From Gemmatimonadota bacterium (GTDB lineage Bacteria; Latescibacterota; UBA2968; UBA8231), in the NCBI GenBank assembly GCA_018672475.1, contig JABHFS010000154.1:9640-73639 (forward strand): a DNA stretch of 64,000 nucleotides. Reading direction: 5' to 3'. The position numbers were made by a program, and so were the translations under genes. Of the stretch, positions 3,024-36,144 are shown piece after piece. Each line of letters begins with the position of its first letter. Position 1 is the stretch's first letter. The notes under the pieces were generated by a model. That model searched no databases. It had not been told where the DNA came from and worked only from the letters and a program-made list of their open reading frames with translations.

Positions 3024-3024
3024 T

Positions 3025-6619: not shown

Positions 6620-6631
6620 TAGAATACCTGG

Positions 6632-7480: not shown

Positions 7481-7539
7481 GGTCGGGGCTCCCTGATGAT
7501 TGGTTTGCGCTATAACGATAAACACAAGCGCTATGTCGT

Positions 7540-8286: not shown

Positions 8287-8574
8287 GGGAGGCTCGTGGT
8301 TGATGGTCTTGGTTGGCGGTGTGCCCGCTTGCTCATACCGCGCCCTGCGGGCGCCTCGCCGACCATCCCTAGTCGGCTCCGAGGGGCGGTCTAATCCGAT
8401 TTTGCAATCCTGCAAGATCGGGACAACAAACCGCTGCGGAGGCATGCCTCCAACCAGCCCTGGTAGCTGGCGAGTTTAACTGCTGGACCATATTAGTACG
8501 GAATTGCGAGGGGGGTGTCCAGCAAGTGGAATGAATTGTTGTGGGGTGGAGGTGCTTTGGCTACTATATCCGGC

Positions 8575-9846: not shown

Positions 9847-9910
9847 GTGCGCATTTTCCCTTTGAAGGATGCGTAATAATCCTTGTTGTTCGTCCCCCCG
9901 TCCCTTAGTT

Positions 9911-10000
9911 ATGTTGTTGAAAAAAATACTACTCCCACTATTTATAACCCTTGCAGTCAGTGCCTTCTGTCCTTTATATATACTGCTATTATGTCATTGA
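9911..10000 (+). repeat. partial duplication of the substrate-binding protein 2 start / signal-peptide coding segment (29-codon uORF MLLKKILLPLFITLAVSAFCPLYILLLCH)
   Basis: Nt 9911-9950 and 9991-10030 align at about 32/40 identity (atgttgttgaaaaaaatactact... vs atgtcattgaaaaaaatactact...). Confidence 0.5.
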
Positions 10001-11259: not shown

Positions 11260-12157
11260 TACGAATAATATGCGCAGAAACATGACGCCGTATTATTTCT
11301 TGTTGCCGGCGATGCTGGTCCTAGCGGTGATCATTCTCTACCCGGTCGTTAGTAACCTGATAATGAGCGTTTATAAGGTAAAGCTCTTTCGTGGGGCCGG
11401 TGACGAATTTATCGGCATGACGAACTACGCCAAGCTCTTGGGCAGCCGCACGTTCGTTAATAGCATCTGGAGTTCGGTGCGTTTTACGGTGTATTCGCTG
11501 CCGGTGGCTTTTGTGTTGGGTCTGGGCATGGCGTTGATCTTTAATGAGATTAAGAAATACCGGCCGGTTTTCACGGGCTTCCTGCTGGTGCCCTGGGCCA
11601 TCGCCCCGGTGGTCACCGGTTATATGTGGCGCTGGCTTTTCCACGACACTTTCGGCCTGGTCAACTACGCGCTATTGAGTCTGGGTATTATCGACGCCAA
11701 TATCCCGTGGCTGGCTCAGCCGGATACTGCGGTCGGCGCGGTAGTCGTCGCAAATGTCTGGCGCTTTATGCCTTATATCACCATCATGCTCTTGGCGGGT
11801 TTGCAAGGGGTCTCGACTGAGCTATACGAGGCGGCGCATGTCGACGGGGCCAATATCTTCGAGCGTTTTTTCCACGTGACCTTGCCGCAGCTCAAACACG
11901 TGATCGGGGTGGTTTTCCTCTTCGCCACGATCTGGATGGTCAACGACTTTGCGCTGATCTTCATTATGACCGAAGGCGGCCCGGCCAAGGCGACGCAGGT
12001 GGTACCGATCACAGTCTATCGCATCGCCTTCGAGCATTTGCGCCTGGGCAAGGGCGCGGCGGCGGCACTGATCCTGCTACTCTTTCTGTTGTCGATGAGC
12101 ATGCTCTTTATCCGCGTACTCTTCCGCGAGCAGAGGAAAAAAGCCGATGCGAGTTAA
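11249..12157 (+). CDS. ABC transporter permease (MalF/UgpA-like)
   Basis: Six TM helices with an EAA-type loop (EAAHVDGANIFERFFHVTLPQL). Confidence 0.85.
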   Translation: MTTSTNNMRRNMTPYYFLLPAMLVLAVIILYPVVSNLIMSVYKVKLFRGAGDEFIGMTNYAKLLGSRTFVNSIWSSVRFTVYSLPVAFVLGLGMALIFNEIKKYRPVFTGFLLVPWAIAPVVTGYMWRWLFHDTFGLVNYALLSLGIIDANIPWLAQPDTAVGAVVVANVWRFMPYITIMLLAGLQGVSTELYEAAHVDGANIFERFFHVTLPQLKHVIGVVFLFATIWMVNDFALIFIMTEGGPAKATQVVPITVYRIAFEHLRLGKGAAAALILLLFLLSMSMLFIRVLFREQRKKADAS

Positions 12158-12986
12158 GACGCAGGCCAAGATCCGCACCTGGTTGGCCTATGGCTTGGGC
12201 GGCACATTCGTATTCGCGCTGGTGTTGCCGTTGATCTGGGTGGTAACGACTTCGGTCAGGCCACTTTCCGAGATGACGCAGACACCGCCGTTGATTTTCC
12301 CGCGTTCGATCACCTTCGACGCCTATGTCGATCTGTGGGATACGGGTCCCTTCGCGAAATATTTCATAAATAGCGTGGTGATCTCCTTTTCGACAGCGCT
12401 GATCGCCCTGATCTTTAGCATTTGCGCCGCCTATGCCTTCGCGCGTTTTCGTTTTAAGGGCGCGACCTTGCTGCTGATGGTAGTGGTGATGTCGCAGATG
12501 TTGCCGGGCTCGTCGATTCTGATCCCGCTGTTTCAGGTGATCCGCGCGATGGGGTTGCTCGATACACATGTGGGCATGGTGCTGATCTATACGGGTTTCG
12601 CCATCCCGTTCTGTACCTGGTTGCTCAACGGTTATTTCCGCGCGATCCCGGTCGATCTTGAACAGGCGGCGTTGATCGACGGATGCAATCGGCTAGAACT
12701 GCTCTATATGATTATTTTGCCGCTGGCGGCGCCGGCCATCGTCGCGGTGGGCACGTTCGCTTTTCTGCTTTCCTGGAATGAGTTTTTGTTCGCCTTTGTC
12801 TTTACTAAATCTCAGGCGTTGACAATTCCGGTCGGGTTGCGGGCGGCATTTTTGGGGCAGTACGTCAATAAATACGATCAGTTGTTTGCGGCTTCGTTGA
12901 TCTTTAGTTTGCCGCCGATCGCTTTGTTTGTGGGGTTGCAGCGGTATTTTGTGCAAGGGTTGACAGCAGGGGCGGTGAAGGAGTAA
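12147..12986 (+). CDS. ABC transporter permease (MalG/UgpE-like)
   Basis: EAA motif (EQAALIDGCNRLELLYMIILPLAAPA). The start overlaps the upstream permease gene. Confidence 0.85.
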   Translation: MRVKTQAKIRTWLAYGLGGTFVFALVLPLIWVVTTSVRPLSEMTQTPPLIFPRSITFDAYVDLWDTGPFAKYFINSVVISFSTALIALIFSICAAYAFARFRFKGATLLLMVVVMSQMLPGSSILIPLFQVIRAMGLLDTHVGMVLIYTGFAIPFCTWLLNGYFRAIPVDLEQAALIDGCNRLELLYMIILPLAAPAIVAVGTFAFLLSWNEFLFAFVFTKSQALTIPVGLRAAFLGQYVNKYDQLFAASLIFSLPPIALFVGLQRYFVQGLTAGAVKE

Positions 12987-13005
12987 ATCTGGGGTGCGCC
13001 TCGTG

Positions 13006-13033
13006 CTGCGGGCTGACCGCGGCAGGTATTTTT
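13006..13033 (+). terminator. weak candidate intrinsic terminator after the permease operon
   Basis: Short GC stem (ctgcgg..ccgcggcag) followed by gtattttt. Confidence 0.3.
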
Positions 13034-13954
13034 CAATCCCCCAGGCCGTCGCCCCTCGCAGCGCTTGTGCGCTGACTCACCACAATCCTGCCCGAACCGA
13101 GGCCCTACGTGGCTCGGACCTCATACCCCCCCCTTAAACACTGGCCGCGGCCACCCCCTCCGCTGGGCCAATGCATGAGCTGAGGGTTTTCAGAGATATC
13201 CTAGTGTATCACTTTTTATATTTTGTGATGCACTAAGCCGTAGTAGACCCCTCTTTTATAGCAAGAAGCTTCTGGCCCGCGTCCCGCCATACTCGCCTTT
13301 GCGGAATTGTTAAATACCCTTGAACGCAAGCAACTGGTTTGAATTCAGCAAAAGAGACGGTAAGAAAACTATATGCCCACACTGGATTGGATCGGAAAAA
13401 ACTGTAGCCAAACACCATAAGGATGTGCCTTCTCGGTGTTTGGAGCCGGTAGCAGAACGCACCCCCCGGCAGCGATGTCCACAGTGCAGACAAAGGGCTA
13501 TTTTTTCACCTCTTGAGTTGGATGATGCGAGCGTAGCGATCAGTAAAAATACCCAACAATTTCGATGAGGCGGTAAAACCAGGAAAAGCAAAGAGCGCTC
13601 GTATGGACTCAGGGGGCATCGCGTTTTCCTATATCGAAAAATAAAACCGTTTCTTTCTGTCACAACATGAATAAATCTACTACTATTTCAGGATAACGCT
13701 TTGATTTACATTGGTTTTACCCACACGTTTCCGCGTAGACCCAATTTTATATCTACGCCTCGCCGTACGGAGCTGTAAAAGTTTTTGCAATGATCGCGGA
13801 ACGGGTGAAGGTGGCGGCGCCATCCGCCGAGCAGCACGTTGCGGATTGTTTGCAAGCAGACGTTCGTTTTGGGATACCGCTGGGGCATATAAATATTTAC
13901 GGGGGAATAGACCGTACTTTTACCGAGCTTAGCTTTTAATCGGAGAATTTAACA

Positions 13955-14941
13955 ATGTTAAAGAAACTGCTGCTGTTTTCCTTTGTCGCGCTTATGGCCT
14001 GCGGGCAAGAGGAAAGCGGGCCGAAAAAAATAAAAATCGGCTATGTGATCAACTTTATGTCGCACGAGTGGTACCAAAATATCAGTAAGTCGGCCATCGC
14101 GCGCGCGGCGGAGTTGGATGTCGAACTGCTCGTCGCGGATGCTAACCTCGATGTCGCGGCACAGATTTCTAAGGCCGAGAATTTTCTCGCGCAGGGCGTC
14201 GACGTGTTGATCTTGTCACCGGTCGACGCCAAGGCAATGGGGCCGATCGTGCGCCAGGCTAAGGAGGTCGGCGCGCGCGTCTTCACCGAGTCGAACCCGG
14301 TGCCAGGCGCCGACAGCTATGTCGGAATCGACAACCACGTCGGCGGAGTTAAGGCGGGGGAGTGGTTTGTCGAATATGCCAGGGAGAAGGGGATCGAGCC
14401 CAAGATCCTGGTGATCGGCTTGCCGAACTTTGAGGATTGCCGGCAAAGGGTCGACGGCTTTAAGGAGGCGCTCGAAAAGGGGGGTATGGCCTATGAGATC
14501 GTGCAGGAGGTCGATGGACAGGGGATGAAGGAGAAGGCGTTCAAGGCGGCGCAGGACGCGCTGACGGCGAACCCGCAGATCAATGTGATCTACGGGATCA
14601 ACGACGATTCGACGACCGGCGGTATGGCGGCCTATAAGGCGGCGGGCCTAGACGAGTCGAAGTTGACGGCCATTGGTTTTGGTTTTGAGGGCACGGTGGG
14701 GCAGGCGGCGTTGACCGGCGATACGACCTACCGGGCGGCGCTGGCGATGTTTCCCAATTTTGTTGGCGCGTCTTTGGTCGACGCGGCGGTGAAACTGGCC
14801 AAGGGCGAAGAGTTGCCGCCGCATTACGAGACGCCGACTATCGTGCTTACCCGCGATAATATCGATCAGTTCTACGATCGCAGCACCGAGCCGCCTTTTG
14901 CATTGAAGACGGACGCGGTGCGGGCGATGATGCCAAAATGA
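13955..14941 (+). CDS. periplasmic sugar-binding protein (RbsB/LacI-family fold, CUT2 ABC)
   Basis: Signal peptide plus periplasmic-binding-protein type I pattern (KIGYVINFMSHEWYQNI..., GVDVLILSPVD). Confidence 0.8.
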   Translation: MLKKLLLFSFVALMACGQEESGPKKIKIGYVINFMSHEWYQNISKSAIARAAELDVELLVADANLDVAAQISKAENFLAQGVDVLILSPVDAKAMGPIVRQAKEVGARVFTESNPVPGADSYVGIDNHVGGVKAGEWFVEYAREKGIEPKILVIGLPNFEDCRQRVDGFKEALEKGGMAYEIVQEVDGQGMKEKAFKAAQDALTANPQINVIYGINDDSTTGGMAAYKAAGLDESKLTAIGFGFEGTVGQAALTGDTTYRAALAMFPNFVGASLVDAAVKLAKGEELPPHYETPTIVLTRDNIDQFYDRSTEPPFALKTDAVRAMMPK

Positions 14942-15921
14942 GCAAGATTTTTTCACGGATTTTTCACAGTGAGCAGGCCGGTTTGTTATTGGCGTTGCTC
15001 GTGCTCTGTTTGGTTATTTCGCTGCTGTCGCCAGTTTTTTTCACCGCGATTAATATCAAGAACGTGCTGCGTGACGCCTCGCTGATCGCCATCGCCGGAA
15101 TCGGTATGGTGATGATTATCCTACTCGGTGAGATCGATTTGAGCGTCGGCTCGACGCAGGCGGTGGCTGGGGTCATTGCGGTGGCGGTGCTCAACCAGAT
15201 GGACAGCGTGTGGTGGGCGTTATTGGCGGCGCTATTGGCCGGGGCATTAGTGGGTTTGTGCAATGGGCTGCTGGTGACCAAGGCGGGCATTAATTCGTTG
15301 ATCGCGACGCTGGGCACTATGGCGATTTTGCGCGGCGGGGCGATGGTCAGCACCCAGGCGGTGTCGATCCAGGGCAAGGTCGAAGGTTTTGTCGAGGTGG
15401 GCACTGGGTATTTGGGGCCGGTGCCAATACCGGTGTTATTGGCCTTCTTGCTTTTTGGACTATTCTATTACGTGCTGCACCATACGATTCTCGGCCGGTA
15501 TATATACGCTATCGGCGGCAATATTCAGGCGGCCCGGCTTTCGGGTTTGGCCGTCGACCGCACGCGAGTTCTGGTTTATGTGATCGGTGGGGTGCTGGCG
15601 GCGTTGAGCGCTTTTATTTTGGCCTCGCGGCTCAACTCCGGGCAACCGAACGCGGGTTTGGGTTTTGAGTTACAGGTCATCGCGGCGGTGATCCTCGGCG
15701 GTATTAGTTTGACCGGCGGGATCGGGACTTTGGGTGGGGCCTTTATCGGGATTCTGATCTTGACGGTGCTCTCCAATGGTTTGGTACTGCTCAATGTGTC
15801 GTCCTTTTACCACGATATTGCGCGCGGCGCGGTGATTATCCTGGCGGTATATCTCGATACTCGGCGCAAGCAGAGTTTGCTGCGGCGTCTGTTGGCGCCC
15901 CCATCCGAAAGCAATTCATGA
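14938..15921 (+). CDS. ABC sugar permease (RbsC-like)
   Basis: Branched-chain/ribose permease family topology. ATGA overlap with the upstream substrate-binding-protein gene. Confidence 0.85.
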   Translation: MSKIFSRIFHSEQAGLLLALLVLCLVISLLSPVFFTAINIKNVLRDASLIAIAGIGMVMIILLGEIDLSVGSTQAVAGVIAVAVLNQMDSVWWALLAALLAGALVGLCNGLLVTKAGINSLIATLGTMAILRGGAMVSTQAVSIQGKVEGFVEVGTGYLGPVPIPVLLAFLLFGLFYYVLHHTILGRYIYAIGGNIQAARLSGLAVDRTRVLVYVIGGVLAALSAFILASRLNSGQPNAGLGFELQVIAAVILGGISLTGGIGTLGGAFIGILILTVLSNGLVLLNVSSFYHDIARGAVIILAVYLDTRRKQSLLRRLLAPPSESNS

Positions 15922-17408
15922 CGCCATTAGTTGAGCTCGTCGGTATCCACAAGCGCTTTCCTGGGGTCTATGCACTCAAGGGCGTGGACTTCGACGTGCG
16001 GGCCGGCGAGGTGCACGCGCTGGTCGGCGAAAATGGCGCGGGCAAGAGCACGTTGATAAAGGTCGCGGCCGGGGTGCATGATTTCGAAAAGGGCAGCTAC
16101 CGTATCGCGGGGCAGGCGGTGGATATCCGCCATCCGCGCCAGGCCCTCGACGAGGGTATCGCGGTGGTCTACCAGGAGTTGGAATTGGTCTTGTCGTTGT
16201 CGGTGGCGGAGAATCTATTCTTCGGGCGCTTGCCGCACGATCGCGGTGGCCGGGTGCGTTGGGGCGAGCTCTACGACGAGTCGGAGAAGCTATTGGCGGA
16301 GGTCGGGCTGGAGGTCGATCCCAAGACCAAGGTTGGGCACTTGGGCGTGGCGGCGCAGCAATTGGTCGAGATCGCGCGGGCGTTGTCGTTTGCGGCCAAG
16401 GTGATCATTATGGACGAGCCGACCTCGGCGCTGAGCCCGCGTGAGATCGAGAAACTCTTTGTGCTGGTTGCCCGGCTCAAGGCGCGCGGCGTGGGGCTGG
16501 TCTATGTCTCGCACAAGCTCGACGAGATTATGGCGTTGGCCGACCGAGTCACGGTCTTGCGCGACGGGCAGCGGGTCGCCTGCAAAGAGACCGTCGACCT
16601 CGATGAAGATCGATTGATCGAACTGATGGTCGGGCGCGAGTTGGGGCAGGGTTTTCCCGCCGCCGGGCGCGAGCCGGGTGAAAACGTGTTGGAGGTGCAG
16701 GGGCTGACGACGGATCAGGTGCAGGATATTTCTTTCCGGGTTTGTGCGGGGGAGATCGTTGGTTTTTCTGGATTGATGGGTGCGGGCCGTACCGAATTGG
16801 CGAGGGGCTTGATGGGGGTGGACCGGCGGTTGGCCGGTTCGGTGGTGATTGCGGGGGTGCCGGTGCCGGCTAATAAACCGCCGGCGGCGCGGAATTTGGG
16901 GCTTGGGTTGGTGCCGGAAGATCGGCGGGCAGACGGGGTTTTTGCGCAATTGAGCGTGCGCGAGAACACGAGTGTGGCAGCGCTGGAACAATTCTGCCGT
17001 CTGGGGTATGTGCAGGGTGGGCTTGAGCGGCGGCAAGTGGGCGGGCTGGTGGAGCGGCTCAAGGTGCGCACGCCGGACCAGGAACAGGAGATGGCCAAGC
17101 TCAGTGGCGGCAATCAGCAGAAGGCACTATTGGCCCGTTGGCTGTTAAAAGAAAACCTCAAAGTGTTGCTGATCGACGAGCCGACTCGGGGTATCGATGT
17201 CGGCGCCAAGGCCGAGATTTACCAATTGTTGGACGAATTGGCGCGCGGTGGTTTGGCGGTGGTATTGCTCTCGTCGGAAATGCCGGAGATACTAGGGCTA
17301 TGTGATCGAATTTACGTGATGAGCCAAGGGCGGATCGCCGCCGAATACGGGCGGGCGGAGGCCACGCCGGAAAAGCTTCTGGCCAGTGCCTTGCCGAATG
17401 TATATTGA
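15918..17408 (+). CDS. sugar ABC ATP-binding protein with duplicated ABC domains (RbsA-like)
   Basis: Two Walker A sites (GENGAGKST / GLMGAGRTE) and two signature motifs (LSGGNQQK). Confidence 0.9.
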   Translation: MTPLVELVGIHKRFPGVYALKGVDFDVRAGEVHALVGENGAGKSTLIKVAAGVHDFEKGSYRIAGQAVDIRHPRQALDEGIAVVYQELELVLSLSVAENLFFGRLPHDRGGRVRWGELYDESEKLLAEVGLEVDPKTKVGHLGVAAQQLVEIARALSFAAKVIIMDEPTSALSPREIEKLFVLVARLKARGVGLVYVSHKLDEIMALADRVTVLRDGQRVACKETVDLDEDRLIELMVGRELGQGFPAAGREPGENVLEVQGLTTDQVQDISFRVCAGEIVGFSGLMGAGRTELARGLMGVDRRLAGSVVIAGVPVPANKPPAARNLGLGLVPEDRRADGVFAQLSVRENTSVAALEQFCRLGYVQGGLERRQVGGLVERLKVRTPDQEQEMAKLSGGNQQKALLARWLLKENLKVLLIDEPTRGIDVGAKAEIYQLLDELARGGLAVVLLSSEMPEILGLCDRIYVMSQGRIAAEYGRAEATPEKLLASALPNVY

Positions 17409-17427
17409 ACTCTATGGAGCGGAATAG

Positions 17428-18084
17428 ATGAACGACGGGCAAGAGGGCACAGTGCGGGTATTGCTCAAAGACCAGGCCTATGAGAATCTGAAAAAGCTCA
17501 TTCTCGAAGAGGTGTTCGCGCCGGGGACAGTTCTCTCCGAGCGGCAATTGGCGGCGCGGTTGGATATGAGCAAGACCCCGATCCTCTCGGCGTTAGAGCG
17601 GCTGGAGACGGAGGGGTTTGTCGCGGTGTCGCCGGAGCAGGGGATCGTAGTAAGGGAACCGTCGTTGCGCGAGATCGTTGACCTCTTCGATATTCGCATC
17701 GCGTTGGAGGTTTTTGTAGTGCAGTCGATCGCCGGGCGACTGAACTCCGAGCAGATTAGTCGGCTACAGGCCAACTTGCAGCCGCAAGCCCGGGCCGCGC
17801 AAGCTAAGGATTTGGTTGAGTGTACGCGTTTGGACGCGGATTTTCATTTGCTGCTCTGCGAGTTTTTAGATAACCGAGAGATTCTGCAGGTGATGCGCGG
17901 GTTGCGCGACAAACTGTATCTGGTGGTGCTGGGGTTGGTGCGGTCGGATACGGGGCGGCTGATGATCAGCTATGGGGAACATGAGGCGATTGTCGAGGCG
18001 GTGGTGAAGGGGCAAGGTGAGGAGGCGGCTAGGCGGTCGAAGGAGCATTTGGAATATGGTAAGAACTTTTTAGTAACGCGGTAG
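17428..18084 (+). CDS. GntR-family transcriptional regulator (FadR/FCD subfamily)
   Basis: N-terminal wHTH (LSERQLAARLDMSKTPILSALERLETEGFV) plus a C-terminal FCD-like helical domain. Confidence 0.85.
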   Translation: MNDGQEGTVRVLLKDQAYENLKKLILEEVFAPGTVLSERQLAARLDMSKTPILSALERLETEGFVAVSPEQGIVVREPSLREIVDLFDIRIALEVFVVQSIAGRLNSEQISRLQANLQPQARAAQAKDLVECTRLDADFHLLLCEFLDNREILQVMRGLRDKLYLVVLGLVRSDTGRLMISYGEHEAIVEAVVKGQGEEAARRSKEHLEYGKNFLVTR

Positions 18085-18196
18085 CTAATGGTCGCAGGTC
18101 CTTGCGGGAAACTTCCTGTGTGGGCGAACATTTTGCAGCTATGTATTCGACTTACGACGGAGATATCAGTAAGATATTTCGCAAAAAGGAGGGCAT

Positions 18197-20110
18197 ATGC
18201 CGTCTAAAAAAGTACTCTGCCATGGCGTGGAGGATATGGCGGAGCGGATACAGTTACGGGTGGGGGCGTTGTCGATGATTTTTGAACCGCAATTGGGCTT
18301 TTTGCGCTATATGACTTATGGGGGCAAGGAGATTTTGCGCGGGGTGTATGCGGCGGTGCGTGATCGCAACTGGGGTACGATCGAGCCGCGGGTGAGCATG
18401 GTGGAGTTGCAAGAAGAGGACGAGGGGTTTGTGCTTTCGTTTGATGTTGAGTGCATAAGTGGGGATGTGGATTTTTTCTGGCGGGGGAGAATCGTCGGTG
18501 AGCCGGGGCGGGTGGAGTTTTCGCTGGATGGGATTGCACGAAAGAGTTTTTCCCGTAATCGACTGGGTTTTTCCGTGTTGCATCCGGCAGAGTGCGCAGG
18601 GCTCGCGTGCCGGGTGGGAAAGGTGGACGGCACGGTAGAGGAGGGTGTGTTTCCGCTATTGATATCACCGCACCAGCCCTTTATGGACATGAAGAGCATC
18701 GCGCACGAGGTCGACGGAGTACGGAGCGAGATCACTTTCGCTGGGGATATCTTTGAGATGGAGGACCAGCGCAATTGGACCGATGCTTCGTATAAGACCT
18801 ATTGTACGCCGCTGGCATTGCCCTTTCCGGTCGATGTGGCAGAAGGCGAGGTGATCCAGCAGACGATTGTGATTGAGGTCGAGGGGACAACGGATATCGT
18901 TGATGAGGATCGGGGGTGCGTATTATTGGCGGTGGAGTCGATTGGCGGGGAGAACTTGATGCATATCGGCTTGGGTCTCGCTAGTGACGCGGGGGAGTTG
19001 AGCGAGGTCGAGTTGGCGCGATTACGCGCGTTGAATTTGTCGCATCTGCGTGTGGATTTGCACTTGGCCGAGCAGGGGTGGCAGACTGTGCTGGCCCGTG
19101 CATGGCGGGAAGCCGAGGCTTTGGCCATTGGGCTTGAAGTAGCGATTTTTGTCAGCGATGCGGCGGCGAGGCAACTGGCGGAGCTGGCCGGGGCATTGGA
19201 TGGGGTGGATATTTGTCGAATACTGGTTTTTCACGAAGATGAGAAATCCACGACGGCGGGGTGGGTGAACTTGGCGCGGGAGTATTTGAGCGGGTTGCAG
19301 GTGCCCATCGGCGCGGGCAGTAACGACTATTTTACCGAACTCAACCGCGAGCGGCCGCCGGTTGAGGTGTTGGATTTGGTCAGTTATTCGCTCAACCCGC
19401 AGGTGCACGCCTTTGATGACGTTTCACTGGCTGAAACGCTTATGATGCAGATGGTAGTAGCGCATAGCGCGCGACAGTTTTGCGGCGATTTGCCGCTTTG
19501 CGTGTCGCCTGTGACGCTATTACCGCGTTTTAACCCCAATGTCACCGGCGCGGAGCCCGAGCCGGGTCCAGGCGATTTACCGCCGCAAGTTGACGTGCGG
19601 CAGATGTCGCTTTTTGGCGCGGGGTGGACGGCGCTCAGCCTGAAGTATTTGGCTTTGCGGGGGGTGGCGAGCAGCACTTATTACGAGACGAGCGGTTGGC
19701 GCGGGGTAATGGAACGCGCGGAAGGCTCGGCGCTGCCGGAGGTTTTTCAGTCGATCGCCGGGGCCGTCTTTCCGCTCTACCACGTATTGGCCGATGTGGG
19801 CGAATATGCGGGTGGCAAGGTCTTTCCGGTGCATACTAGTGACCTGTTGCGGGTCGACGGAGTGGCGTTGGTCAAGGGCGAGCGGCGGCGGCTTTTGCTG
19901 GTCAATCTGACGGGGGAGACCGTGGCGGTACAGATCTCGGGTTGGACTGGGGCGGCGTATGTGGTGCAGCTCGACGAACGCAATGTCGAGCGGGCGATGA
20001 GCGAGCCCGAGGTGTTTCGCGCGGAGCAGGGGGTGCGGTATGTGCGAGTCGAGTCGCTTGATCTGTTGCCCTATGCGGTGACGCGTGTCGATTTGGAGGT
20101 GGATTCGTGA
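18197..20110 (+). CDS. conserved-looking protein of unknown function (637 aa)
   Basis: Long ORF with coding-like composition in the same orientation as the flanking operon. No family was recognised by eye; the central part has TIM-barrel-like alternation. Confidence 0.6.
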   Translation: MPSKKVLCHGVEDMAERIQLRVGALSMIFEPQLGFLRYMTYGGKEILRGVYAAVRDRNWGTIEPRVSMVELQEEDEGFVLSFDVECISGDVDFFWRGRIVGEPGRVEFSLDGIARKSFSRNRLGFSVLHPAECAGLACRVGKVDGTVEEGVFPLLISPHQPFMDMKSIAHEVDGVRSEITFAGDIFEMEDQRNWTDASYKTYCTPLALPFPVDVAEGEVIQQTIVIEVEGTTDIVDEDRGCVLLAVESIGGENLMHIGLGLASDAGELSEVELARLRALNLSHLRVDLHLAEQGWQTVLARAWREAEALAIGLEVAIFVSDAAARQLAELAGALDGVDICRILVFHEDEKSTTAGWVNLAREYLSGLQVPIGAGSNDYFTELNRERPPVEVLDLVSYSLNPQVHAFDDVSLAETLMMQMVVAHSARQFCGDLPLCVSPVTLLPRFNPNVTGAEPEPGPGDLPPQVDVRQMSLFGAGWTALSLKYLALRGVASSTYYETSGWRGVMERAEGSALPEVFQSIAGAVFPLYHVLADVGEYAGGKVFPVHTSDLLRVDGVALVKGERRRLLLVNLTGETVAVQISGWTGAAYVVQLDERNVERAMSEPEVFRAEQGVRYVRVESLDLLPYAVTRVDLEVDS

Positions 20111-20408
20111 GTGGTCTGAGAAGTGGGTTGGTCGGTTGCGCTGGGCGCCGATTATGAGTTGACGGTGGTGCGGGGAGCCCGAGGTGCACAAGCAGCGAGT
20201 ACCGCCGCTCGAGCGGGCTTGGAGCGAAGCGCCGGGCACGGCGATACAGAGATAGCGTGGTCGCTGACCCAACAGCATTGCGTCGACGCGTTGCGGGCGG
20301 GAGAGTCGCCCGAGACTTCTGCAGCCGATAACTTGCGCACGTTAGAATGGGTCTTCGGCGCCTATGTATCCGCGGCAACGGGTCTGCCTTATCGTATGGG
20401 AGAATCAA

Positions 20409-21662
20409 ATGGCGACTGAACGCGTCATAGCGACGTATCTGATCGAAACGCCGTATTCGCTACAAGAAGCGGCAGAGGTATTGGCCGGTGAGCAGTCGAG
20501 TGGGACTTTTGTTTCAGTGCCGGGGGAGACCGATGAATTGCGGGAAAGATTCCGGGCGAGATTGGAATCGCTGCAAGAATTAGAGCCGGTGGCCGAGCCG
20601 AGTTTGCCCGGGGGAAAAGTGCCGGAGGGTGTTGCCCAATATCGCCGGGCGCGGATTGAGGTTTCCTTTTCCCTGGAGAATATGGGGGTTAACTTGCCGA
20701 CGCTTGTCGCCACGGTGGCGGGCAATCTTTTTGAGCTGCGCGAGTTTTCCGGGCTCAAGTTATTGGATATAGAACTACCGCAGGATTTTGTTGCCCGCTA
20801 TCCGGGTCCACAATTCGGCATCGCGGGCACCAGGCAATTGGCCGGGGTGGAAGCACGACCGTTGATTGGTACTATCGTCAAACCGAGTGTGGGGCTGAGT
20901 CCGGCGCAGACGGCTGAGTTGGCCGGGGAGTTGGCCGGGGCGGGCATCGATTTTATTAAAGACGACGAATTGATGGCCGACCCGCCGCACTCTCCACTCA
21001 AAGAGCGGGTAGAGGCGGTGATGAAGGTCCTCAATAAGCACGCCGATAAGACGGGAAAGAAGGTGATGTATGCCTTTAATATCAGCGATTCGCTGGAGGC
21101 AATGTATCGCCACCACGATATCGTGCAGGCGGCGAGTGGCACCTGCGTGATGGTCAGTTTGAACAGTGTGGGGTTGGCGGGGGTCGAGGCTTTGCGTGGC
21201 CGGGCGAGTTTGCCGATCCACGGGCACCGTAATGGTTGGGGCATGTTGAACCGGCACCCGGCGTTGGGTATTGAGTTTACGGCCTATCAGAAGCTGTGGC
21301 GTCTGGCCGGTGTCGACCATCTGCACGTCAATGGTCTGCAGAACAAATTCTCCGAATCCGACGAGTCGGTAGTGCGTTCGATCAAGGCCTGTCTCGAACC
21401 CTTCTTGGGGGGGTATCATCTGATGCCGGTGATCTCCTCGGGACAATGGGGTGGCCAGGCGCCGGAGACCTATCAATTGACCAAGACGGTCGATCTGATG
21501 TATCTGGCCGGTGGCGGCATGATGGCGCACCCCGGGGGGCCGGCGGCGGGTTGTGCGGCGATCCGCCAGGCGTGGGCGGCGGCGGTTAAGGGGGTCGAAC
21601 TCGCCGACTATGCCCGCGAACACGAAGAGCTACGGCTCTCAATTGAGAAATTTGGAGGCTGA
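20409..21662 (+). CDS. RuBisCO-like protein (form IV RLP, RuBisCO large-subunit homolog)
   Basis: GTIVKPSVGLS (RuBisCO KPKLGLS), DFIKDDE (K201/D203/E204), IHGHRNGW (H294/R295), DHLHVNGLQNKF (K334 loop 6) and LAGGGMMAHPGG (C-terminal phosphate site). RBS gggaga 7 nt upstream. No rbcS, prk or cbb genes nearby. Confidence 0.85.
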   Translation: MATERVIATYLIETPYSLQEAAEVLAGEQSSGTFVSVPGETDELRERFRARLESLQELEPVAEPSLPGGKVPEGVAQYRRARIEVSFSLENMGVNLPTLVATVAGNLFELREFSGLKLLDIELPQDFVARYPGPQFGIAGTRQLAGVEARPLIGTIVKPSVGLSPAQTAELAGELAGAGIDFIKDDELMADPPHSPLKERVEAVMKVLNKHADKTGKKVMYAFNISDSLEAMYRHHDIVQAASGTCVMVSLNSVGLAGVEALRGRASLPIHGHRNGWGMLNRHPALGIEFTAYQKLWRLAGVDHLHVNGLQNKFSESDESVVRSIKACLEPFLGGYHLMPVISSGQWGGQAPETYQLTKTVDLMYLAGGGMMAHPGGPAAGCAAIRQAWAAAVKGVELADYAREHEELRLSIEKFGG

Positions 21663-22597
21663 TGAACTATCGCAAGGCAGTGCGCGCGGGGATCGAGTTG
21701 TCGCAGGTGGGTTTGGGCTGTAACCGTTTGGGAGAAGAAGGCAAGGACGATCGGCATTGGATCGATTTGGTACAACGCGCAGTCGAATTGCGGATTAATA
21801 TTTTTGATACGGCGCAAGGGTATGGCGGCGGTCGCAGCGAGCAGATCTTGGGCCAGGCCCTGGGCAATCGCGACGACGTGTATGTGGCGAGCAAGATCGG
21901 CCATAGCGAGGGGGGCTTTACGCCGGAAGAAATGGCGCGGAAAATCGAGATGAGCCTGACCCGGCTCCAACGGGATCGTGTCGATATACTGCAATTGCAC
22001 AGCCCGAGCCGCGAGGAACTCGAGCGTTATGATTGGGCCGAGGGCATGCAGCGGTTGCAGGATGCGGGCAAGGTCGGTTTTAAGGCGATGGCGTTGGATT
22101 CAGTCGAGTCGGCGGTGTGGCTGATCCGGCAGGATGTCGTCGATTTTATGCAGATCACCTATAACATTTTTGATATCGAGGCCGAGCACGAGCTCTTTGC
22201 CTTGGCCGAAGAAAAGGGAGTGGCGTTGCTGTGTCGTTTGCCGCTCGCGCAGGGAGTGCTGACGGGTAAATTTTCGCCCGGGCGGGATATGGGCGATCAT
22301 CGCGCGCGCTTTTCGGGGCCGCGGTTGGCCGCCAGGGTTGAAATGGCCGAGACGCTCAGACCATTGGCTGAGGCCTATCCCGGCGGGATGACGCGGTTGG
22401 CACACGATTTCAGCTTAGGGCCTGTCGCGACGACCTGTATTATCCCCGGCGCGCGGGATGTGGTGCAATTGGAGGAGAATACGGCGGCGGGCGAGGGCAC
22501 GGGTGTCGATGCGGCCACACGGGCCGAGGTCGAGCAATTGCGCCGGACTTGGGGTGAGTGGGCGGGCGGGTATTGGTTCCCGCAACAGCCGGCGTAA
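21662..22597 (+). CDS. aldo/keto reductase
   Basis: AKR signature (IFDTAQGYGGGRSEQILGQAL) and the start overlaps the RLP stop codon. Confidence 0.85.
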   Translation: MNYRKAVRAGIELSQVGLGCNRLGEEGKDDRHWIDLVQRAVELRINIFDTAQGYGGGRSEQILGQALGNRDDVYVASKIGHSEGGFTPEEMARKIEMSLTRLQRDRVDILQLHSPSREELERYDWAEGMQRLQDAGKVGFKAMALDSVESAVWLIRQDVVDFMQITYNIFDIEAEHELFALAEEKGVALLCRLPLAQGVLTGKFSPGRDMGDHRARFSGPRLAARVEMAETLRPLAEAYPGGMTRLAHDFSLGPVATTCIIPGARDVVQLEENTAAGEGTGVDAATRAEVEQLRRTWGEWAGGYWFPQQPA

Positions 22598-23964
22598 TGG
22601 ATCTGCGGCTCGGTTTTTACGGTGATGATTTTACCGGCTCGACCGATGCGTTGGAGGCGCTAAGCACGGCGGGTTTGCGCACGGTGCTTTTTATTGAGCC
22701 GCCGACTGCGGAACAGTTGGCGCGTTTTCCGGGTTTAGAGGCGGTAGGAGTAGCGGGGCGCACGCGTTCGTTGGCGACGGGGGATATTTCGGCTGAACTC
22801 AGGCCGGTTTTTGCGCGTTTCGCCGAGTTGGGCTGTCCGCTGGTTCACTACAAAACCTGTTCGACCTTTGATTCTTCGCCCGAGGTAGGCAGTATCGGGC
22901 GGGCTATTGATGTGGGGCAGGAGATTTTTGCCTCGCCATTTGTGCCACTGGTCGTGGGCGCACCGGTGTTGCAGCGCTTTTGTGTCTTCGGCAATCTCTT
23001 TGCGCGCTCGGGGCTCGATAGCGAGATCTTTCGCCTGGACCGGCACCCGACGATGCGCCAGCATCCGGTTACGCCGATGCACGAAGCGGATCTGCGCTTG
23101 CACCTTGGGCGGCAGACCGAGCGGCAGATCGGGCTTTTTGATGTGCAGGCGCTTGCTTTATCGCAACGCGAAAGGGAGGTGGCACTCGACGCTCTATTGG
23201 CCGAAGGCGCGGAGATCGTGCTATTCGATGTATTGACCGATGAGCACTTGCAGCGCATTGGTCAATTGCTTTCCACGCGGGCGGAGCCCGGTAAGACCTT
23301 ATTCGTCGCCGGGTCGTCGGGGATCGAATATGCGTTGTGCCAATATTGGGGGGTGGGTAATTCGCAACTCCCGGCCGGCGGCGCAGCGGTGGATCATGCG
23401 CTGGTGGTGTCGGGCAGTTGTTCGCCGGTGACCGAGCGACAGATCGCGCGGGCGCTGACCAAGGGCTTTGCCGGTGTAGCGGCCGATACGGCACTTTTGG
23501 TCCAAGGCGGACCGGTAGCGGAGGCCGAGACGGCGCGCTTGGTGGTGGAGAGTTTAAAGGCGCTCGAAGCGGGAAAAAGTCCCTTGGTGCATACGGCTCT
23601 GGGGCCTGCAGACGAACGAATCGGTGCGACGGCGGCGAAACTTCAGGCGATGGGCTATGATCTCTTAGATCTCAAGTTGAAAAGCGGCGAGATCTTCGGT
23701 CGGGTGCTTGGCAATATAGTGCAGACGATTTTTGCGGGCACGGGGCTTCGTCGCGCGTGTGTAGCCGGCGGTGACACTTCGACCTATGCGGCGCGGCAAT
23801 TGCGCATCGAAGCTCTGGAGATGGTCGGGCCGATGGCGCCGGGCTCGCCGCTGTGTCGGGTTTCCGCAGCGAACGGAGTAATCGACGGAGCTGAAATCAC
23901 GTTTAAAGGTGGCCAGGTGGGGCGCGACGACTTTTTTACTTCTGTATTGAAAGGAAAACCATGA
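22597..23964 (+). CDS. four-carbon acid-sugar kinase family protein (DUF1537 N-domain + DUF2090 C-domain; OtnK/OiaK-like)
   Basis: N-terminal LGFYGDDFTGSTDALEAL motif typical of DUF1537 kinases. The start is coupled to the AKR stop by a taATGg overlap. Confidence 0.8.
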   Translation: MDLRLGFYGDDFTGSTDALEALSTAGLRTVLFIEPPTAEQLARFPGLEAVGVAGRTRSLATGDISAELRPVFARFAELGCPLVHYKTCSTFDSSPEVGSIGRAIDVGQEIFASPFVPLVVGAPVLQRFCVFGNLFARSGLDSEIFRLDRHPTMRQHPVTPMHEADLRLHLGRQTERQIGLFDVQALALSQREREVALDALLAEGAEIVLFDVLTDEHLQRIGQLLSTRAEPGKTLFVAGSSGIEYALCQYWGVGNSQLPAGGAAVDHALVVSGSCSPVTERQIARALTKGFAGVAADTALLVQGGPVAEAETARLVVESLKALEAGKSPLVHTALGPADERIGATAAKLQAMGYDLLDLKLKSGEIFGRVLGNIVQTIFAGTGLRRACVAGGDTSTYAARQLRIEALEMVGPMAPGSPLCRVSAANGVIDGAEITFKGGQVGRDDFFTSVLKGKP

Positions 23965-24803
23965 CAGATAAAACAACGGTAGCTATTTTCGGCGCGGCCG
24001 GCAGTATGGGGACGCGTTCTTCGAATGCGCTCAAAAACGATTTGGTCTATGATGTGCTCTATGTGGAGGCTGGCAAGGAGGGAATGGCTCGGTTGCGCGA
24101 GCGGGGTGTGGAGCCGACAGAGCAGGCGGTGGCGCTCAAACAGGCTGAAGTGATCGTGCTGGCGGTGCCCGACGCGCTGATCGCTACTGTCGCTGCCGAG
24201 ATTGTGCCCGAGATGCAGAGCGGGGCGATGCTGATTGGGCTTGATCCGGCTGCACCACATGCTGGGCGTCTGCCCGAGCGCCAGGACGTGAGCTATTTCT
24301 TTTCACACCCTTCGCACCCGCCGATCTTCAACGACGAGACGGAAGCCGAGGCGCGCAGGGATTTTTTTGGCGGTGTGGCGAAGCAGTCGATCGTCAGCGC
24401 CCTATTGCAGGGGCCGGAAGAAGATTATGCCAAGGGCGAGGTGATCGCCAGCAAGCTCTTCGGGCCGATCCTGCGTTCGCACCGGATCAGCATCGAGCAG
24501 ATGGCGATCTTGGAGCCAGCGCTTTCCGAGACGGTGACGGCGACCTGTTTGACGGTGATCCGCGAGGCGCTGGACGAGGCGGTCAAGAGGGGTGTGCCGG
24601 CCGAGGCGGCGCGGGATTTCCTTTTGGGCCACCTCAACGTCGAGCTGGCGATTCTCTTCGACGAGATCGACTGGGAGTTGTCGGACGGGGCGAAGGAGGC
24701 GGTCGCCGACGCGATGCCGGTTATTTTCCAGCCGGATTGGAAGAAGGTCTTTGATGCCGAGCAGCTACTGGTGTCTACACGCAAGATCACTGAGATCAAA
24801 TAG
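23961..24803 (+). CDS. NAD(P)-binding dehydrogenase (6-phosphogluconate/3-hydroxyisobutyrate dehydrogenase-like Rossmann fold)
   Basis: VAIFGAAGSMG glycine-rich motif followed by AEVIVLAVPD. ATGA overlap with the kinase gene. The C-terminal half is divergent. Confidence 0.55.
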   Translation: MTDKTTVAIFGAAGSMGTRSSNALKNDLVYDVLYVEAGKEGMARLRERGVEPTEQAVALKQAEVIVLAVPDALIATVAAEIVPEMQSGAMLIGLDPAAPHAGRLPERQDVSYFFSHPSHPPIFNDETEAEARRDFFGGVAKQSIVSALLQGPEEDYAKGEVIASKLFGPILRSHRISIEQMAILEPALSETVTATCLTVIREALDEAVKRGVPAEAARDFLLGHLNVELAILFDEIDWELSDGAKEAVADAMPVIFQPDWKKVFDAEQLLVSTRKITEIK

Positions 24804-24811: not shown

Positions 24812-25909
24812 ATGAAAGAGACGATATTGCAGTTCGGTGGTGGCAAGTTCCTGCGCTCCTTTGCTGATTTCTTCGTGCACGAGGCCAACCAAGCCGGGCA
24901 GGAGGTCGGACAGGTCGTGGTGGTGCAATCGACCGATAGTCCACGCGCGCAGTGGCTCAACGCGCAGCAGGGGAAATACCAGGTTTTGGTGCGTGGGTTG
25001 GTGGAAGGCGGACAGGTCGATGAGGCGCGGGAGATCGCTAGTATCAGCCGGGCGTTGGTCGCGAGCCAGCAATGGCCCGAAGTGCTGCAGGTGGCGAGAT
25101 CGGCCGATTTGCGGTGGATCGTCTCGAATGTGACTGAGGCGGGTTATGGTCTCGATGCGGGAGATGTGATCGAGGCGCCGCGTAGCTTTCCTGCCAAGCT
25201 AACGGCGGTGCTCAAGGCGCGTTTTGACGCGGATTTGCCGGGGTTGCCGATTTTGCCCTGCGAATTGATTGCGGAGAATGGCGAGCGATTATTGGAATTA
25301 GTGTTGCAACAGGTGGCGCATTGGAAACTAGAAGATAAATTCGTCGATTGGCTGGGTGGCCAATGTATCTGGCCGAACGCGTTGGTCGACCGCATTGTCA
25401 GCTCGCCGCCCGACGATCATCCGCTGCTGGCGGCGGATCCGTTGCTGGCAGTGGCTGAGCCCTTTGCGCTGTGGGCGATTGAGGAATTCGAAGGTGTAGA
25501 CCTCTTTGAGCATCCGGCGATAAAACTCGTCGACGATGTAGAACCCTATGCGCTGCGCAAGGTGCGGATTTTGAATGGCGCGCATCAGGCATTGGTCTGC
25601 CGCGCGTTAAATCGCTTCGCGACGGTGCGCGAGGCGCTGGCCGACGCGGAGACCGAGGCTTGGTTGCAACAGTTGCTGGCCGCAGAGATCGTGCCGGTGG
25701 TTGATGCGCGTGTCGAGGGGGCTTCGGCTTTTGCCCAGGAAACGATGCAGCGTTTCGCCAATCCTTTCCTCGACCACAAGCTGAGCGATATCGCCGTCTA
25801 TCACGAGCAGAAGATCGAGACGCGGTTGATGCCGACTTATCGCGAATACAAGCAGCACTTTGGTCAAGAGCCGGTGTTACTGAGCGAGATTCTCAAGCCC
25901 TTTTTGTAG
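24812..25909 (+). CDS. mannitol dehydrogenase family oxidoreductase (altronate/tagaturonate reductase UxaB-like), shorter than UxaB
   Basis: Blocks align with E. coli UxaB: ILQFGGGKFLRSF, RWIVSNVTEAG, ILPCELIAENGERLLELVL, NALVDRIV, KVRILNGAHQALV. Confidence 0.75.
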   Translation: MKETILQFGGGKFLRSFADFFVHEANQAGQEVGQVVVVQSTDSPRAQWLNAQQGKYQVLVRGLVEGGQVDEAREIASISRALVASQQWPEVLQVARSADLRWIVSNVTEAGYGLDAGDVIEAPRSFPAKLTAVLKARFDADLPGLPILPCELIAENGERLLELVLQQVAHWKLEDKFVDWLGGQCIWPNALVDRIVSSPPDDHPLLAADPLLAVAEPFALWAIEEFEGVDLFEHPAIKLVDDVEPYALRKVRILNGAHQALVCRALNRFATVREALADAETEAWLQQLLAAEIVPVVDARVEGASAFAQETMQRFANPFLDHKLSDIAVYHEQKIETRLMPTYREYKQHFGQEPVLLSEILKPFL

Positions 25910-26447: not shown

Positions 26448-27575
26448 TTAGACGACCTGTTCTAAGACCTCGGTGAAATTGGCGACTGTGCGCTCGACGT
26501 TTTGCAGTTTGTCGAGGCCGAAGAGCCCGAGACGAAAGGTCTGGAAACCTTCGGGCTCGTCGCACTGCAGCGGCACGCCGGCGGCGATCTGCAGGCCGTT
26601 GGCGGCAAATTTCTTGCCCGTTTGTATCTCGCCGTCTTCGGTATAACAGACGACGACGCCCGGGGCCTGAAAACCTTCGGCAGCGACGCTCTTGACGCCT
26701 TTGTCGGTGAGCGCTGCGCGGATCTTATCCCCGAGCTCTTGCTGTTGTTGGCGTACGGTGTCGAAGCCTATGGCTTCGATTTCGCCCATCACCTTGTGAA
26801 AGGTGGCCAATGCGTCGGTGGGCATGGTCGCGTGGTAGGCGTGGCCGCCATTCTCGTAGGCCTCCATGATCGATAGCCATTTACCGAGGTCACAGGCGAA
26901 GCTGCTGCTGGTGGTGCTGTTAATTTTTTCGCGCGCGGCGGCATTGAGCATGACTAGCCCGCAACAGGGCGAGCCGCTCCAGCCCTTTTGCGGCGCGCTG
27001 ATCAAGATGTCGACGCCGGAAGCTTCCATGTCGACCCATAGCGCGCCCGAGGCGATGCAGTCGAGCACGAACAAACCACCCGCAGCGTGCACGGCGTCAG
27101 CTACCTGGCGGATATAGTCGTCGGGCAGGATGATGCCAGCGGAGGTTTCGACGTGCGGGGCGAAGACCATATCCGGCTTTTCGCTTTGGATCGTCTGCAC
27201 AACCTCCTCGATGGGGGCGGGGGCGAAGGCCGCCTGCGGGCCGTCTTCTACGGGACGGGCTTTCAAGACGGTGGTGCTCGCGGGAATGTTGCCCATATCG
27301 AGGATCTGGCTCCAGCGGAAACTGAAAAAACCATTGCGGATGACCAGGCATTTTTTATCGTTGGCGAACTGGCGGGCGACCGCTTCCATGCCGTAGGTGC
27401 CGCTGCCGGGCACGATGGCGACGGCTTTGGCGTTGTAGACCTTTTTGAGGGTGGCGGAAATATCCCGCATCGACCCTTGGAACGATTGCGACATATGGTT
27501 GAGCGCGCGGTCGGTGAAGACCACGGAGTATTCTAACAGTCCATCGGGGTCGACGTCGGGTAATAAGCCTGGCAT
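26448..27575 (-). CDS. class V aminotransferase (serine-pyruvate / alanine-glyoxylate aminotransferase family)
   Basis: PLP fold-type I with a QK lysine motif (ILISAPQKGWSGSPCCGLV), as in SGAT/AGXT enzymes. Confidence 0.85.
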   Translation of the reverse strand: MPGLLPDVDPDGLLEYSVVFTDRALNHMSQSFQGSMRDISATLKKVYNAKAVAIVPGSGTYGMEAVARQFANDKKCLVIRNGFFSFRWSQILDMGNIPASTTVLKARPVEDGPQAAFAPAPIEEVVQTIQSEKPDMVFAPHVETSAGIILPDDYIRQVADAVHAAGGLFVLDCIASGALWVDMEASGVDILISAPQKGWSGSPCCGLVMLNAAAREKINSTTSSSFACDLGKWLSIMEAYENGGHAYHATMPTDALATFHKVMGEIEAIGFDTVRQQQQELGDKIRAALTDKGVKSVAAEGFQAPGVVVCYTEDGEIQTGKKFAANGLQIAAGVPLQCDEPEGFQTFRLGLFGLDKLQNVERTVANFTEVLEQVV

Positions 27576-36107: not shown

Positions 36108-36144
36108 CCGTGTTTCTTTAATGGGTGAATGAAAGCATGGTGGT

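Follow-up and report, generated by a model that had tools for sequence, protein, structure and literature searches.

The stretch of DNA analysed here (the window) comprises 64,000 nucleotides of a Gemmatimonadota metagenome-assembled genome (MAG; assembly GCA_018672475.1, contig JABHFS010000154.1, positions 9,640 to 73,639 of the forward strand). It contains a gene for a form IV RuBisCO-like protein (RLP), an intact open reading frame (ORF) of 417 amino acids in the ORF listing, on the plus strand at positions 20409 to 21662, with the stop codon counted in. The protein keeps five RuBisCO residues of carboxylation and cleavage, four of which are replaced in the decarboxylase OiaX; because of this, an OiaT-type transcarboxylase/hydrolase reaction giving 3-phosphoglycerate and glycolate is favoured over plain decarboxylation, a sequence-based assignment held with about even confidence. 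Judged by its gene content, the surrounding operon most likely encodes an oxidative D-apiose/D-apionate-type pathway.

Fold and active-site residues of the RLP

The RLP matched the Pfam families RuBisCO_large (PF00016, 233 bits, E 7e-69) and RuBisCO_large_N (PF02788, 38 bits), both above cut-off, and showed the architecture of the superfamily, with an N-terminal α/β domain and a C-terminal TIM-barrel domain. An AlphaFold model built on 54 homologues (pLDDT 88, pTM 0.89) was compared with known structures using Foldseek, which gave TM scores of 0.85 to 0.93 against RLP and RuBisCO structures. The best match was 3nwr (TM 0.90/0.93, root-mean-square deviation 2.0 Å), also first in a sequence search of the PDB (E 1e-135), and form III RuBisCOs ranked after the RLPs. 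The identical protein sequence is already present in NCBI from Gemmatimonadetes MAGs, under the name 'ribulose 1,5-bisphosphate carboxylase'. The nearest genome locus likewise belongs to a Gemmatimonadetes MAG (L001); its RLP is 83% identical and its synteny near-identical.

Catalytic residues were transferred from spinach numbering to the window protein using HMMER against the form III enzyme 6hun, MAFFT with form III representatives, and hhalign profile-profile comparison (a 54-sequence family profile against a form III profile; probability 100%, E 7e-82), and codon positions were checked against the DNA. The mapping was identical by the three methods; the active-site comparison rests on these alignments, not on three-dimensional superposition. 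In the N-terminal domain, the catalytic residues E28, T33, F34, and N106 (codons within 20490-20726, plus strand like all codons below; MAFFT and hhalign) corresponded to E60, T65, W66, and N123, of which only W66 was replaced, by Phe. The other positions were placed by all three alignments. K158-P159-S160 (20880-20888) aligned with K175-P176-K177, so that K175 was kept as K158 and K177 was replaced by S160 (codon 20886-20888). In K184-D185-D186-E187 (20958-20969), K184 corresponded to the carbamate lysine K201, and D186 and E187 to the Mg2+ ligands D203 and E204. H273-R274-N275-G276-W277 (21225-21239) contained the equivalents of H294 (H273) and R295 (R274), with W277 replacing H298. The segment from H304-L-H306 to K313 (21318-21347) kept H325, H327 (H306), and the loop-6 lysine K334 (K313). 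S343-S344-G345-Q-W-G-G (21435-21455) aligned with S379-G380-G381 and the residues that follow, S379 and G381 being kept as S343 and G345 and G380 replaced by S344, and G368-G369-G370 (21510-21518) with the phosphate-binding glycines G403/G404, kept as G368/G369. The corresponding stretches of the window and form III proteins were, in this order, AGEQSSGTF and AAEESVGTW, VAGNLF and VAGNLF, GTIVKPSVGLSP and GTIVKPKVGLSP, IDFIKDDE and VDMVKDDE, PIHGHRNGWGM and PVHVHRAMHAA, VDHLHVNGLQNKF and GDQLHTGTAAGKM, PVISSGQWGG and PVASGGIHPA, and LAGGGMMAHPGG and NAGGGIHGHPWG. By these alignments the RLP has a complete carbamate-Mg triad, the K175-equivalent general base/acid lysine, H294, the loop-6 lysine, and the P1 phosphate glycines.

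A sequence-only reading of the window had identified by eye the equivalents of K175, K201, D203, E204, H294, R295, and K334, and all were present in the three alignments. It had also assigned a Ser to the K177 position, and each alignment indeed placed Ser (S160), not Lys, there; K201 and its partners (K184, D186, and E187) aligned in all three and were invariant in the family alignment. Its description of the SGG segment as replaced was correct in part: G380 is Ser and is followed after one glycine by Q-W-G-G, but S379 and G381 are retained and the segment reads S-S-G. The changes of H298 to Trp and W66 to Phe had been missed. The motif KPS[VI]GL was found in 120 of the 120 best homologues, and as Ser160 was invariant among them, it is a family signature. 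Within the 54-sequence alignment, K158, P159, S160, K184-E187, H273, R274, W277, H306, K313, S343-Q346, and G368-G370 were all invariant. The residue pattern that had been flagged is thus the standard signature of a very large RLP clade, known in outline since the apiose work.

It is very improbable that the protein is a true CO2-fixing, form III-like RuBisCO or one of the enolase or isomerase RLPs of methionine salvage. Most RuBisCO catalytic residues are kept, and form III RuBisCOs are the next-best structures after RLPs; form III enzymes (6hun, 3a12) share the fold and are identical at 13 of the 17 compared positions, including the carbamate-Mg triad and the loop-6 lysine. However, K177, H298, W66, and G380 are replaced by Ser, Trp, Phe, and Ser, identity to form III is only ~30-35%, and the gene lies in a catabolic context. 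The protein scored below all RuBisCO family cut-offs (rubisco_III, TIGR03326, 245 bits against 497; general large-subunit model NF003252, 230 bits against 438) and below those of the MtnW models (NF007095, 170 bits against 409; TIGR03332, 128 bits against 514), and no phosphoribulokinase, AMP-phosphorylase, or methionine-salvage neighbour was found among the annotated ORFs of the window. The sub-cut-off RuBisCO scores, the loss of K177 and H298, and the sugar-acid catabolic operon agree with the earlier view of a diverged RLP that is not a carboxylase. The database name is therefore a likely mis-annotation, from which a heterotrophic Gemmatimonadota-type MAG would be mistaken for a CO2 fixer.

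Among other RLPs of known structure, those of the IV-Photo/Rhodopseudomonas palustris RLP2 type (1ykw, 2qyg) were 27-31% identical to the window protein, and 2qyg has R295 changed to Phe, H327 to Ile, and K334 to Arg, all three of which the window RLP keeps. The closest structure, 3nwr ('Burkholderia fungorum' RLP, an entry without a function), shares E60, N123, H327, K334, and the S379-S380-G381 pattern but differs in having Asn at K177 and Tyr at H298; its nearest sampled relative, from Azospirillum, is encoded beside a VOC-family protein and a TRAP transporter, in a locus that lacks ApnO. Of the three chemistries suggested in the sequence-only reading, the evidence favours that of the decarboxylase-derived group (OiaX/OiaT) over those of the enolase and isomerase RLPs. 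The expectation that the residue pattern would help to assign clade and chemistry was borne out, as it sets the protein apart from OiaX and joins it to the large RLP clade linked to DUF1537 kinases.

Decarboxylation or carboxyl transfer

OiaX (EC 4.1.1.121) and OiaT (EC 3.7.1.28) act on the same kind of substrate, and the OiaT reaction converts 3-oxo-isoapionate 4-phosphate and water into 3-phosphoglycerate and glycolate. In RuBisCO, E60, N123, K334, H327, and S379 bind the carboxylate as it arrives or forms and assist in hydration and C-C cleavage. The two RLP activities have been described in apiose catabolism (PMC6302742; bioRxiv 10.64898/2026.03.13.711244). As outlined in PMC6302742, protonation of the enediolate by OiaX gives L-erythrulose 1-phosphate; in OiaT, CO2 is re-added to the adjacent carbon, and hydration and cleavage then give 3-phosphoglycerate and glycolate. 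The same paper presents OiaT, the 3-oxo-isoapionate-4-phosphate transcarboxylase/hydrolase, as characterised in Xanthobacter autotrophicus.

The best NCBIfam match of the window RLP was OiaX (519 bits, E 7e-156), below the 700-bit cut-off of the equivalog model NF042437. Control proteins named OiaX by PGAP scored 784 (Rhizobium etli), 791 (Sinorhizobium meliloti), and 761 bits (Paracoccus), and eight other kinase-linked RLPs of the E60/N123/H327 type scored 416-509 bits on the same model. An OiaX residue signature, derived in this analysis from seven sequences that were either PGAP-named or above 700 bits, consisted of D60, G123, A/S177, Q327, Y335, and G/C379; the corresponding residues of the window RLP are E, N, S, H, F, and S. 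Residues of the window type were found in 75 of the 76 full-length RLPs from 80 related loci, and in proteobacterial plasmid RLPs, the exceptions being the Azospirillum RLP and 3nwr (Asn at K177). The window RLP is, by these sequence measures, not an OiaX equivalog. The residues also yield a rule by which DUF1537-linked RLPs can be sorted, into those that keep E60/N123/H327/S379, as here, and those with D/G/Q/G, as in OiaX.

In other respects the window RLP resembles OiaX. OiaX proteins such as that on R. etli p42f (WP_244425832.1) have the same fold and ~51% full-length identity to the window RLP. They too keep K175, K201, D203, E204, H294, R295, and K334, have lost K177 (to Ala or Ser), have Trp at H298, and carry the xSGQWGGQAPETY motif. 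Their genes adjoin a DUF1537 kinase, and most loci also contain an ApnO homologue and a GntR/NanR regulator. The R. etli locus differs in having TIM-like (LerI) and RpiB-like (DerI) isomerases; no homologue of either was detected in the 64-kb window or in the 80 related loci, nor was any other downstream enzyme conserved beside the RLP-kinase pair across these 80 loci.

Another possibility, which we consider rather unlikely, is that the protein is a plain decarboxylase, functionally equal to OiaX (EC 4.1.1.121) but on a deeper branch, whose L-erythrulose 1-phosphate is handled by isomerases encoded elsewhere. OiaX is the top curated family, the full-length identity to the R. etli enzyme and the kinase and ApnO neighbours are as expected for it, and equivalog cut-offs are strict, the seeds of this model being proteobacterial. 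The lack of nearby LerI and DerI genes in the Paracoccus and Shinella OiaX loci also means that their absence here is not decisive. On the other side, the scores are bimodal (416-519 and 761-791 bits), with that of the window RLP clearly in the lower group, and five active-site positions differ systematically (E60/D, N123/G, H327/Q, F335/Y, and S379/G). Thousands of homologues moreover share the window-type residues without variation, an indication that these residues are required.

An OiaT-type reaction would account for this retention. OiaX has replaced four of E60, N123, H327, K334, and S379, and the window clade keeps all five invariant; the carboxyl transfer, hydration, and cleavage of an OiaT-type enzyme would need the RuBisCO residues that the window RLP keeps. 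OiaT also occupies the same position in the pathway, after ApnO and OiaK, a likeness drawn from pathway order and not from a sequence comparison with the characterised enzyme. With regard to its host group, RLPs of the Rhizobium sp. Q54 type occur in the Xanthobacteraceae relatives Ancylobacter and Starkeya. A 5.68-Mb metagenome contig, whose RLP falls in a Xanthobacteraceae-rich group, contains a complete apionate cluster, and this RLP matches the window protein at E60, K177, H327, and S379-S380. A weaker pointer is that JGI gives a single RLP cluster of 57% identity (Bradyrhizobium elkanii type, same signature) the name '3-oxoisoapionate-4-phosphate transcarboxylase/hydrolase'.

In the mechanism proposed for such a reaction, the substrate would be 3-oxo-isoapionate 4-phosphate or a close analogue, whose keto and hydroxyl oxygens would bind the Mg2+ held by carbamylated K184, D186, and E187. 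Its single phosphate would lie in the retained P1 site (G345, G368, G369, and T33). Decarboxylation of the β-keto acid would leave an Mg-stabilised enediolate of the RuBisCO kind, CO2 would be recaptured on the neighbouring carbon, and hydrolysis of the adduct would give 3-phosphoglycerate and glycolate. The loss of K177 and H298, common to the whole clade, may reflect a substrate with a shorter carbon chain and without a second phosphate. Should the retained residues indeed signify carboxyl transfer and hydrolysis, RuBisCO-like carboxylation chemistry would be widespread in the catabolism of plant-cell-wall sugars in many phyla.

Several points weigh against this assignment. Neither an X. autotrophicus OiaT nor one named by Swiss-Prot was found among the plasmid tblastn, protein-search, and cluster matches, and orthology to the window RLP is thus not established. 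Retention is ancestral for the clade as a whole, and the residues might serve binding or stereospecific protonation instead of carboxyl transfer. The RLP of the complete apionate cluster has the JGI name 'ribulose-bisphosphate carboxylase large chain'. LerI and DerI are also missing within ~9 kb in two of the three annotated ApnO-containing OiaX loci (Paracoccus and Shinella); because of these loci, the genes can evidently lie elsewhere, and the argument from context is weak. The ApnL, OiaK, and RLP homologues all score below their NCBIfam equivalog cut-offs, and the binding protein of the window is not a close relative of that of R. etli; for these reasons, the substrate could be a relative of apiose. 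The aldo-keto reductase and mannitol-dehydrogenase-family genes of the operon are unexplained extras.

The operon and its predicted pathway

A start of the RLP gene at an upstream ATG (20364) was rejected. A Shine-Dalgarno-like GGGAGA (20395-20400, plus strand, read from the sequence) lies 6-7 nucleotides 5' of the ATG at 20409, and homologues begin at the equivalent of this position; because of both, 20409 was taken as the start. Antisense ORFs over the gene (for example, 20775-21623, minus strand) were set aside as GC-rich artefacts. In promoter and terminator scans, the counts did not exceed those expected from shuffled sequence.

All genes of the operon lie on the plus strand. It begins with a sugar ATP-binding cassette (ABC) transporter (13955-17408; a Peripla_BP_4 binding protein at 13955-14941, a permease, and a double ATPase by Pfam, with a weak RbsB-like NCBIfam match), which would import the sugar, and a GntR/FCD-family regulator (17428-18084; Pfam), comparable to the NanR-like regulators that flank other apionate clusters. 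A distant homologue of the D-apionate lactonase ApnL follows (637 amino acids, 18197-20110). ApnL was its sole NCBIfam family match (294 bits against a cut-off of 750, residues 15-580), and its identity to the lactonases of other apionate clusters was 31-34%; in this comparison set, the lactonase of locus L093 was confirmed by its Apionate_lact Pfam domains, and the others were unnamed proteins at the same cluster position. The local Pfam copy gave no family for the 637-residue protein. As it also gave none for the L093 lactonase (16534-18444), which has Apionate_lact_N/M/C (PF25837-PF25839) on record, this blank is uninformative and does not signify novelty.

Downstream of the RLP gene is an aldo/keto reductase gene (21662-22597; Pfam), whose ATG overlaps the RLP stop codon (TGATG). 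This enzyme may be the aldose 1-dehydrogenase of the pathway; its gene is absent from the closest relative locus, L001. Next comes a DUF1537 kinase of the 'four-carbon acid sugar kinase' family (22597-23964), with Pfam SBD_N and NBD_C domains and an OiaK-like score of 449 bits against a cut-off of 700. The kinase gene probably starts at the ATG at 22597, in an overlap with the stop codon of the reductase gene. It is followed by an ApnO-like NAD-dependent oxidoisomerase with the PGDH_C/F420_oxidored fold (23961-24803), which was 52% identical to PDB entry 5t57 (E 3e-88). This entry is the ApnO of Cupriavidus necator N-1, whose gene lies directly 5' of an RLP gene and a DUF1537 kinase gene on plasmid pBB1, and it is named D-apionate oxidoisomerase (ApnO) in bioRxiv 10.1101/2020.08.24.261826. 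The last gene encodes a mannitol-dehydrogenase-family oxidoreductase near the tagaturonate-reductase subfamily (24812-25909; 341 bits against a cut-off of 359), and a gene of this family also follows ApnO in L001. Stop and start codons overlap at the RLP/reductase, reductase/kinase, and kinase/ApnO junctions, and the genes are therefore considered one operon with translational coupling.

The oxidative D-apiose route is described as consisting of a dehydrogenase, the lactonase ApnL, the oxidoisomerase ApnO, the kinase OiaK, and an RLP (PMC6302742; PMC12994016; bioRxiv 10.64898/2026.03.13.711244). In the corresponding scheme for the window, the imported sugar would be oxidised to a lactone, perhaps by the aldo-keto reductase, and the ApnL-like lactonase would open the lactone to the acid. 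The ApnO-like enzyme would convert the acid into the 3-oxo acid (3-oxo-isoapionate), and the OiaK-like kinase would phosphorylate it and pass the product to the RLP. For the window itself, this is an ordinary catabolic operon.

Two flanking regions were also conserved in L001. A class-V aminotransferase gene (26448-27575, minus strand), convergent to the operon end, has PhnW/AepZ and the aspartate-glyoxylate aminotransferase BhcA as weak best matches and has a counterpart at the corresponding position of L001 (69% identity). A neighbouring glyoxylate aminotransferase would be in keeping with an RLP that makes glycolate; shared ancestry explains the synteny equally well. Upstream, two tandem SBP_bac_1 proteins and two BPD_transp_1 permeases, with no ATPase of their own (8515-12986), lie 5' of the ribose-type ABC system of the RLP operon, and the same arrangement is present in L001 (64-89% identity).

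Neighbourhoods of the clade and alternative substrates

The RLP clade is large: all 8000 of the 8000 candidates passed E 1e-20, and 387 cluster representatives were below 1e-30. Among representatives at 50% identity, which were 39-71% identical to the window RLP, the E/N/H/S pattern was the common state, and OiaX appeared as a derived branch inside it. A DUF1537 kinase homologue follows the RLP gene in 74 of the 80 related loci, and beyond the kinase at least three kinds of neighbourhood were distinguished.

The first kind, to which the window belongs, is linked to ApnO and usually also contains a Gfo/Idh/MocA dehydrogenase, an ApnL homologue, a transporter, and a GntR/NanR regulator. It was found in Pirellulales, Verrucomicrobia, Chloroflexi, Armatimonadetes, Acidobacteria, and Gemmatimonadetes, as well as in Rhizobium sp. 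Q54, Roseibium, Cupriavidus, Burkholderia, and the 5.68-Mb metagenome contig. The set of ApsD, ApnL, ApnO, kinase, and an RLP of identical signature was present in Pirellulales, Verrucomicrobia, Chloroflexi, Armatimonadetes, Acidobacteria, Rhizobium sp. Q54, Roseibium, C. necator N-1, and the metagenome contig, with an RLP from the Xanthobacteraceae-rich set of matches, some of them named Ancylobacter, Starkeya, or Xanthobacteraceae. RLPs 56-57% identical to that of the Rhizobium sp. Q54 apionate cluster were also observed on haloarchaeal plasmids (Halomarina sp. PSR21, H74; Haloarcula sp. JP-L23, H113), so that the kinase-linked clade spans the bacterial/archaeal boundary.

In the second kind, an RLP, a kinase, and an Asp/Glu-racemase-family protein occur together without ApnO (57 related loci, L004-L079 and L082; for example, L039, 1372-10700, and L082, 8998-13689), with an SBF/BASS symporter as well in 48. 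These loci are mostly from Bacteroidota, Verrucomicrobiota, and Planctomycetota. A GH127 gene lies immediately 5' in 25 of them, with GH2, GH78, GH106, DUF5703, and SASA genes around, surroundings that resemble a rhamnogalacturonan-II (RG-II; pectin) utilisation locus. The racemase-cassette RLPs are 58-66% identical to the window RLP and have the identical catalytic signature, including Ser at K177, and the kinase immediately 3'; they differ at window positions 236 (Tyr instead of His), 304 (Gln instead of His), and 263 (Cys instead of Arg). At position 304 (RuBisCO H325), ApnO-linked RLPs have His and racemase-linked RLPs Gln. A neighbour-joining tree united the racemase-linked proteins in one large group and placed the ApnO-linked ones, including the window RLP, in a basal grade.

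The third kind, found in Bradyrhizobium, Agrobacterium, and Sinorhizobium fredii, combines an aldo-keto reductase, a metallo-β-lactamase (MBL)-fold lactonase, a short-chain dehydrogenase/reductase (SDR), BKACE, a kinase, and an RLP. Two RLPs named OiaX by PGAP lie in such ApnO-less clusters (L094, Agrobacterium salinitolerans, 800-14750; L096, S. fredii GR64, 900-14000), with aldo-keto reductases, an MBL-fold 'AHL lactonase', an SDR, a BKACE ('3-keto-5-aminohexanoate cleavage') protein, and a DUF1537 kinase. The same cluster type in B. elkanii (L083) has an RLP of the window signature. Either the name OiaX is too broad, or a second pathway feeds the same enzyme.

It is improbable that the substrate of the window RLP is a different phosphorylated 3-oxo acid sugar, for example a homologue of 3-oxo-isoapionate derived from another branched or rare sugar, in a variant pathway that uses either known RLP chemistry or a third one. 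All pathway proteins are below the equivalog cut-offs, the lactonase homologue is only 31-34% identical to ApnL, and the binding protein is not close to that of R. etli. The usual Gfo/Idh/MocA apiose dehydrogenase is replaced by the aldo-keto reductase, and the mannitol-dehydrogenase-family enzyme is added. RLPs of the same signature, 60-66% identical, also sit in quite different cassettes (racemase/BASS, or aldo-keto reductase/MBL-lactonase/SDR/BKACE), from which it follows that the clade serves several pathways. However, the ApnO-like protein shares 52% full-length identity with the D-apionate oxidoisomerase of known structure, and the combination of ApnL-like, ApnO-like, and OiaK-like proteins with an RLP is the exact apionate set of many phyla.

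A more far-reaching and somewhat more doubtful proposal is that the E60/N123/S177/H327 clade has a third, abundant RLP function, neither that of OiaX nor that of OiaT, on phosphorylated branched 3-oxo acid sugars, with the window operon serving a non-apiose sugar and the sister cassette aceric acid. The aldo-keto reductase, the mannitol-dehydrogenase-family enzyme, and the distant lactonase could then be the marks of a variant operon. It is speculation that the racemase/BASS cassette beside GH127 processes aceric acid, or some other acid sugar of RG-II, by an undescribed pathway. Isomerisation of aceric acid to its ketose would give the 1-hydroxyethyl homologue of 3-oxo-isoapionate; no paper that connects aceric acid with RuBisCO-like proteins turned up in a full-text literature search.

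Elsewhere in the window, ORFs of 351, 533, and 297 amino acids at 46998-49715 and 6632-7525 had no Pfam match at E 1e-5. The region from 33706 to 45743 contains four PhyH-family (phytanoyl-CoA-dioxygenase-like) genes, at 33706, 37611, 39285, and 44919, and amid them two ORFs without a Pfam match (34863-36107 and 36145-37377) and genes for an HpcH/HpaI aldolase, a Zn-dependent dehydrogenase, a Gfo/Idh/MocA oxidoreductase, and a mandelate-racemase/enolase-superfamily protein, a dense set that constitutes a putative catabolic island.

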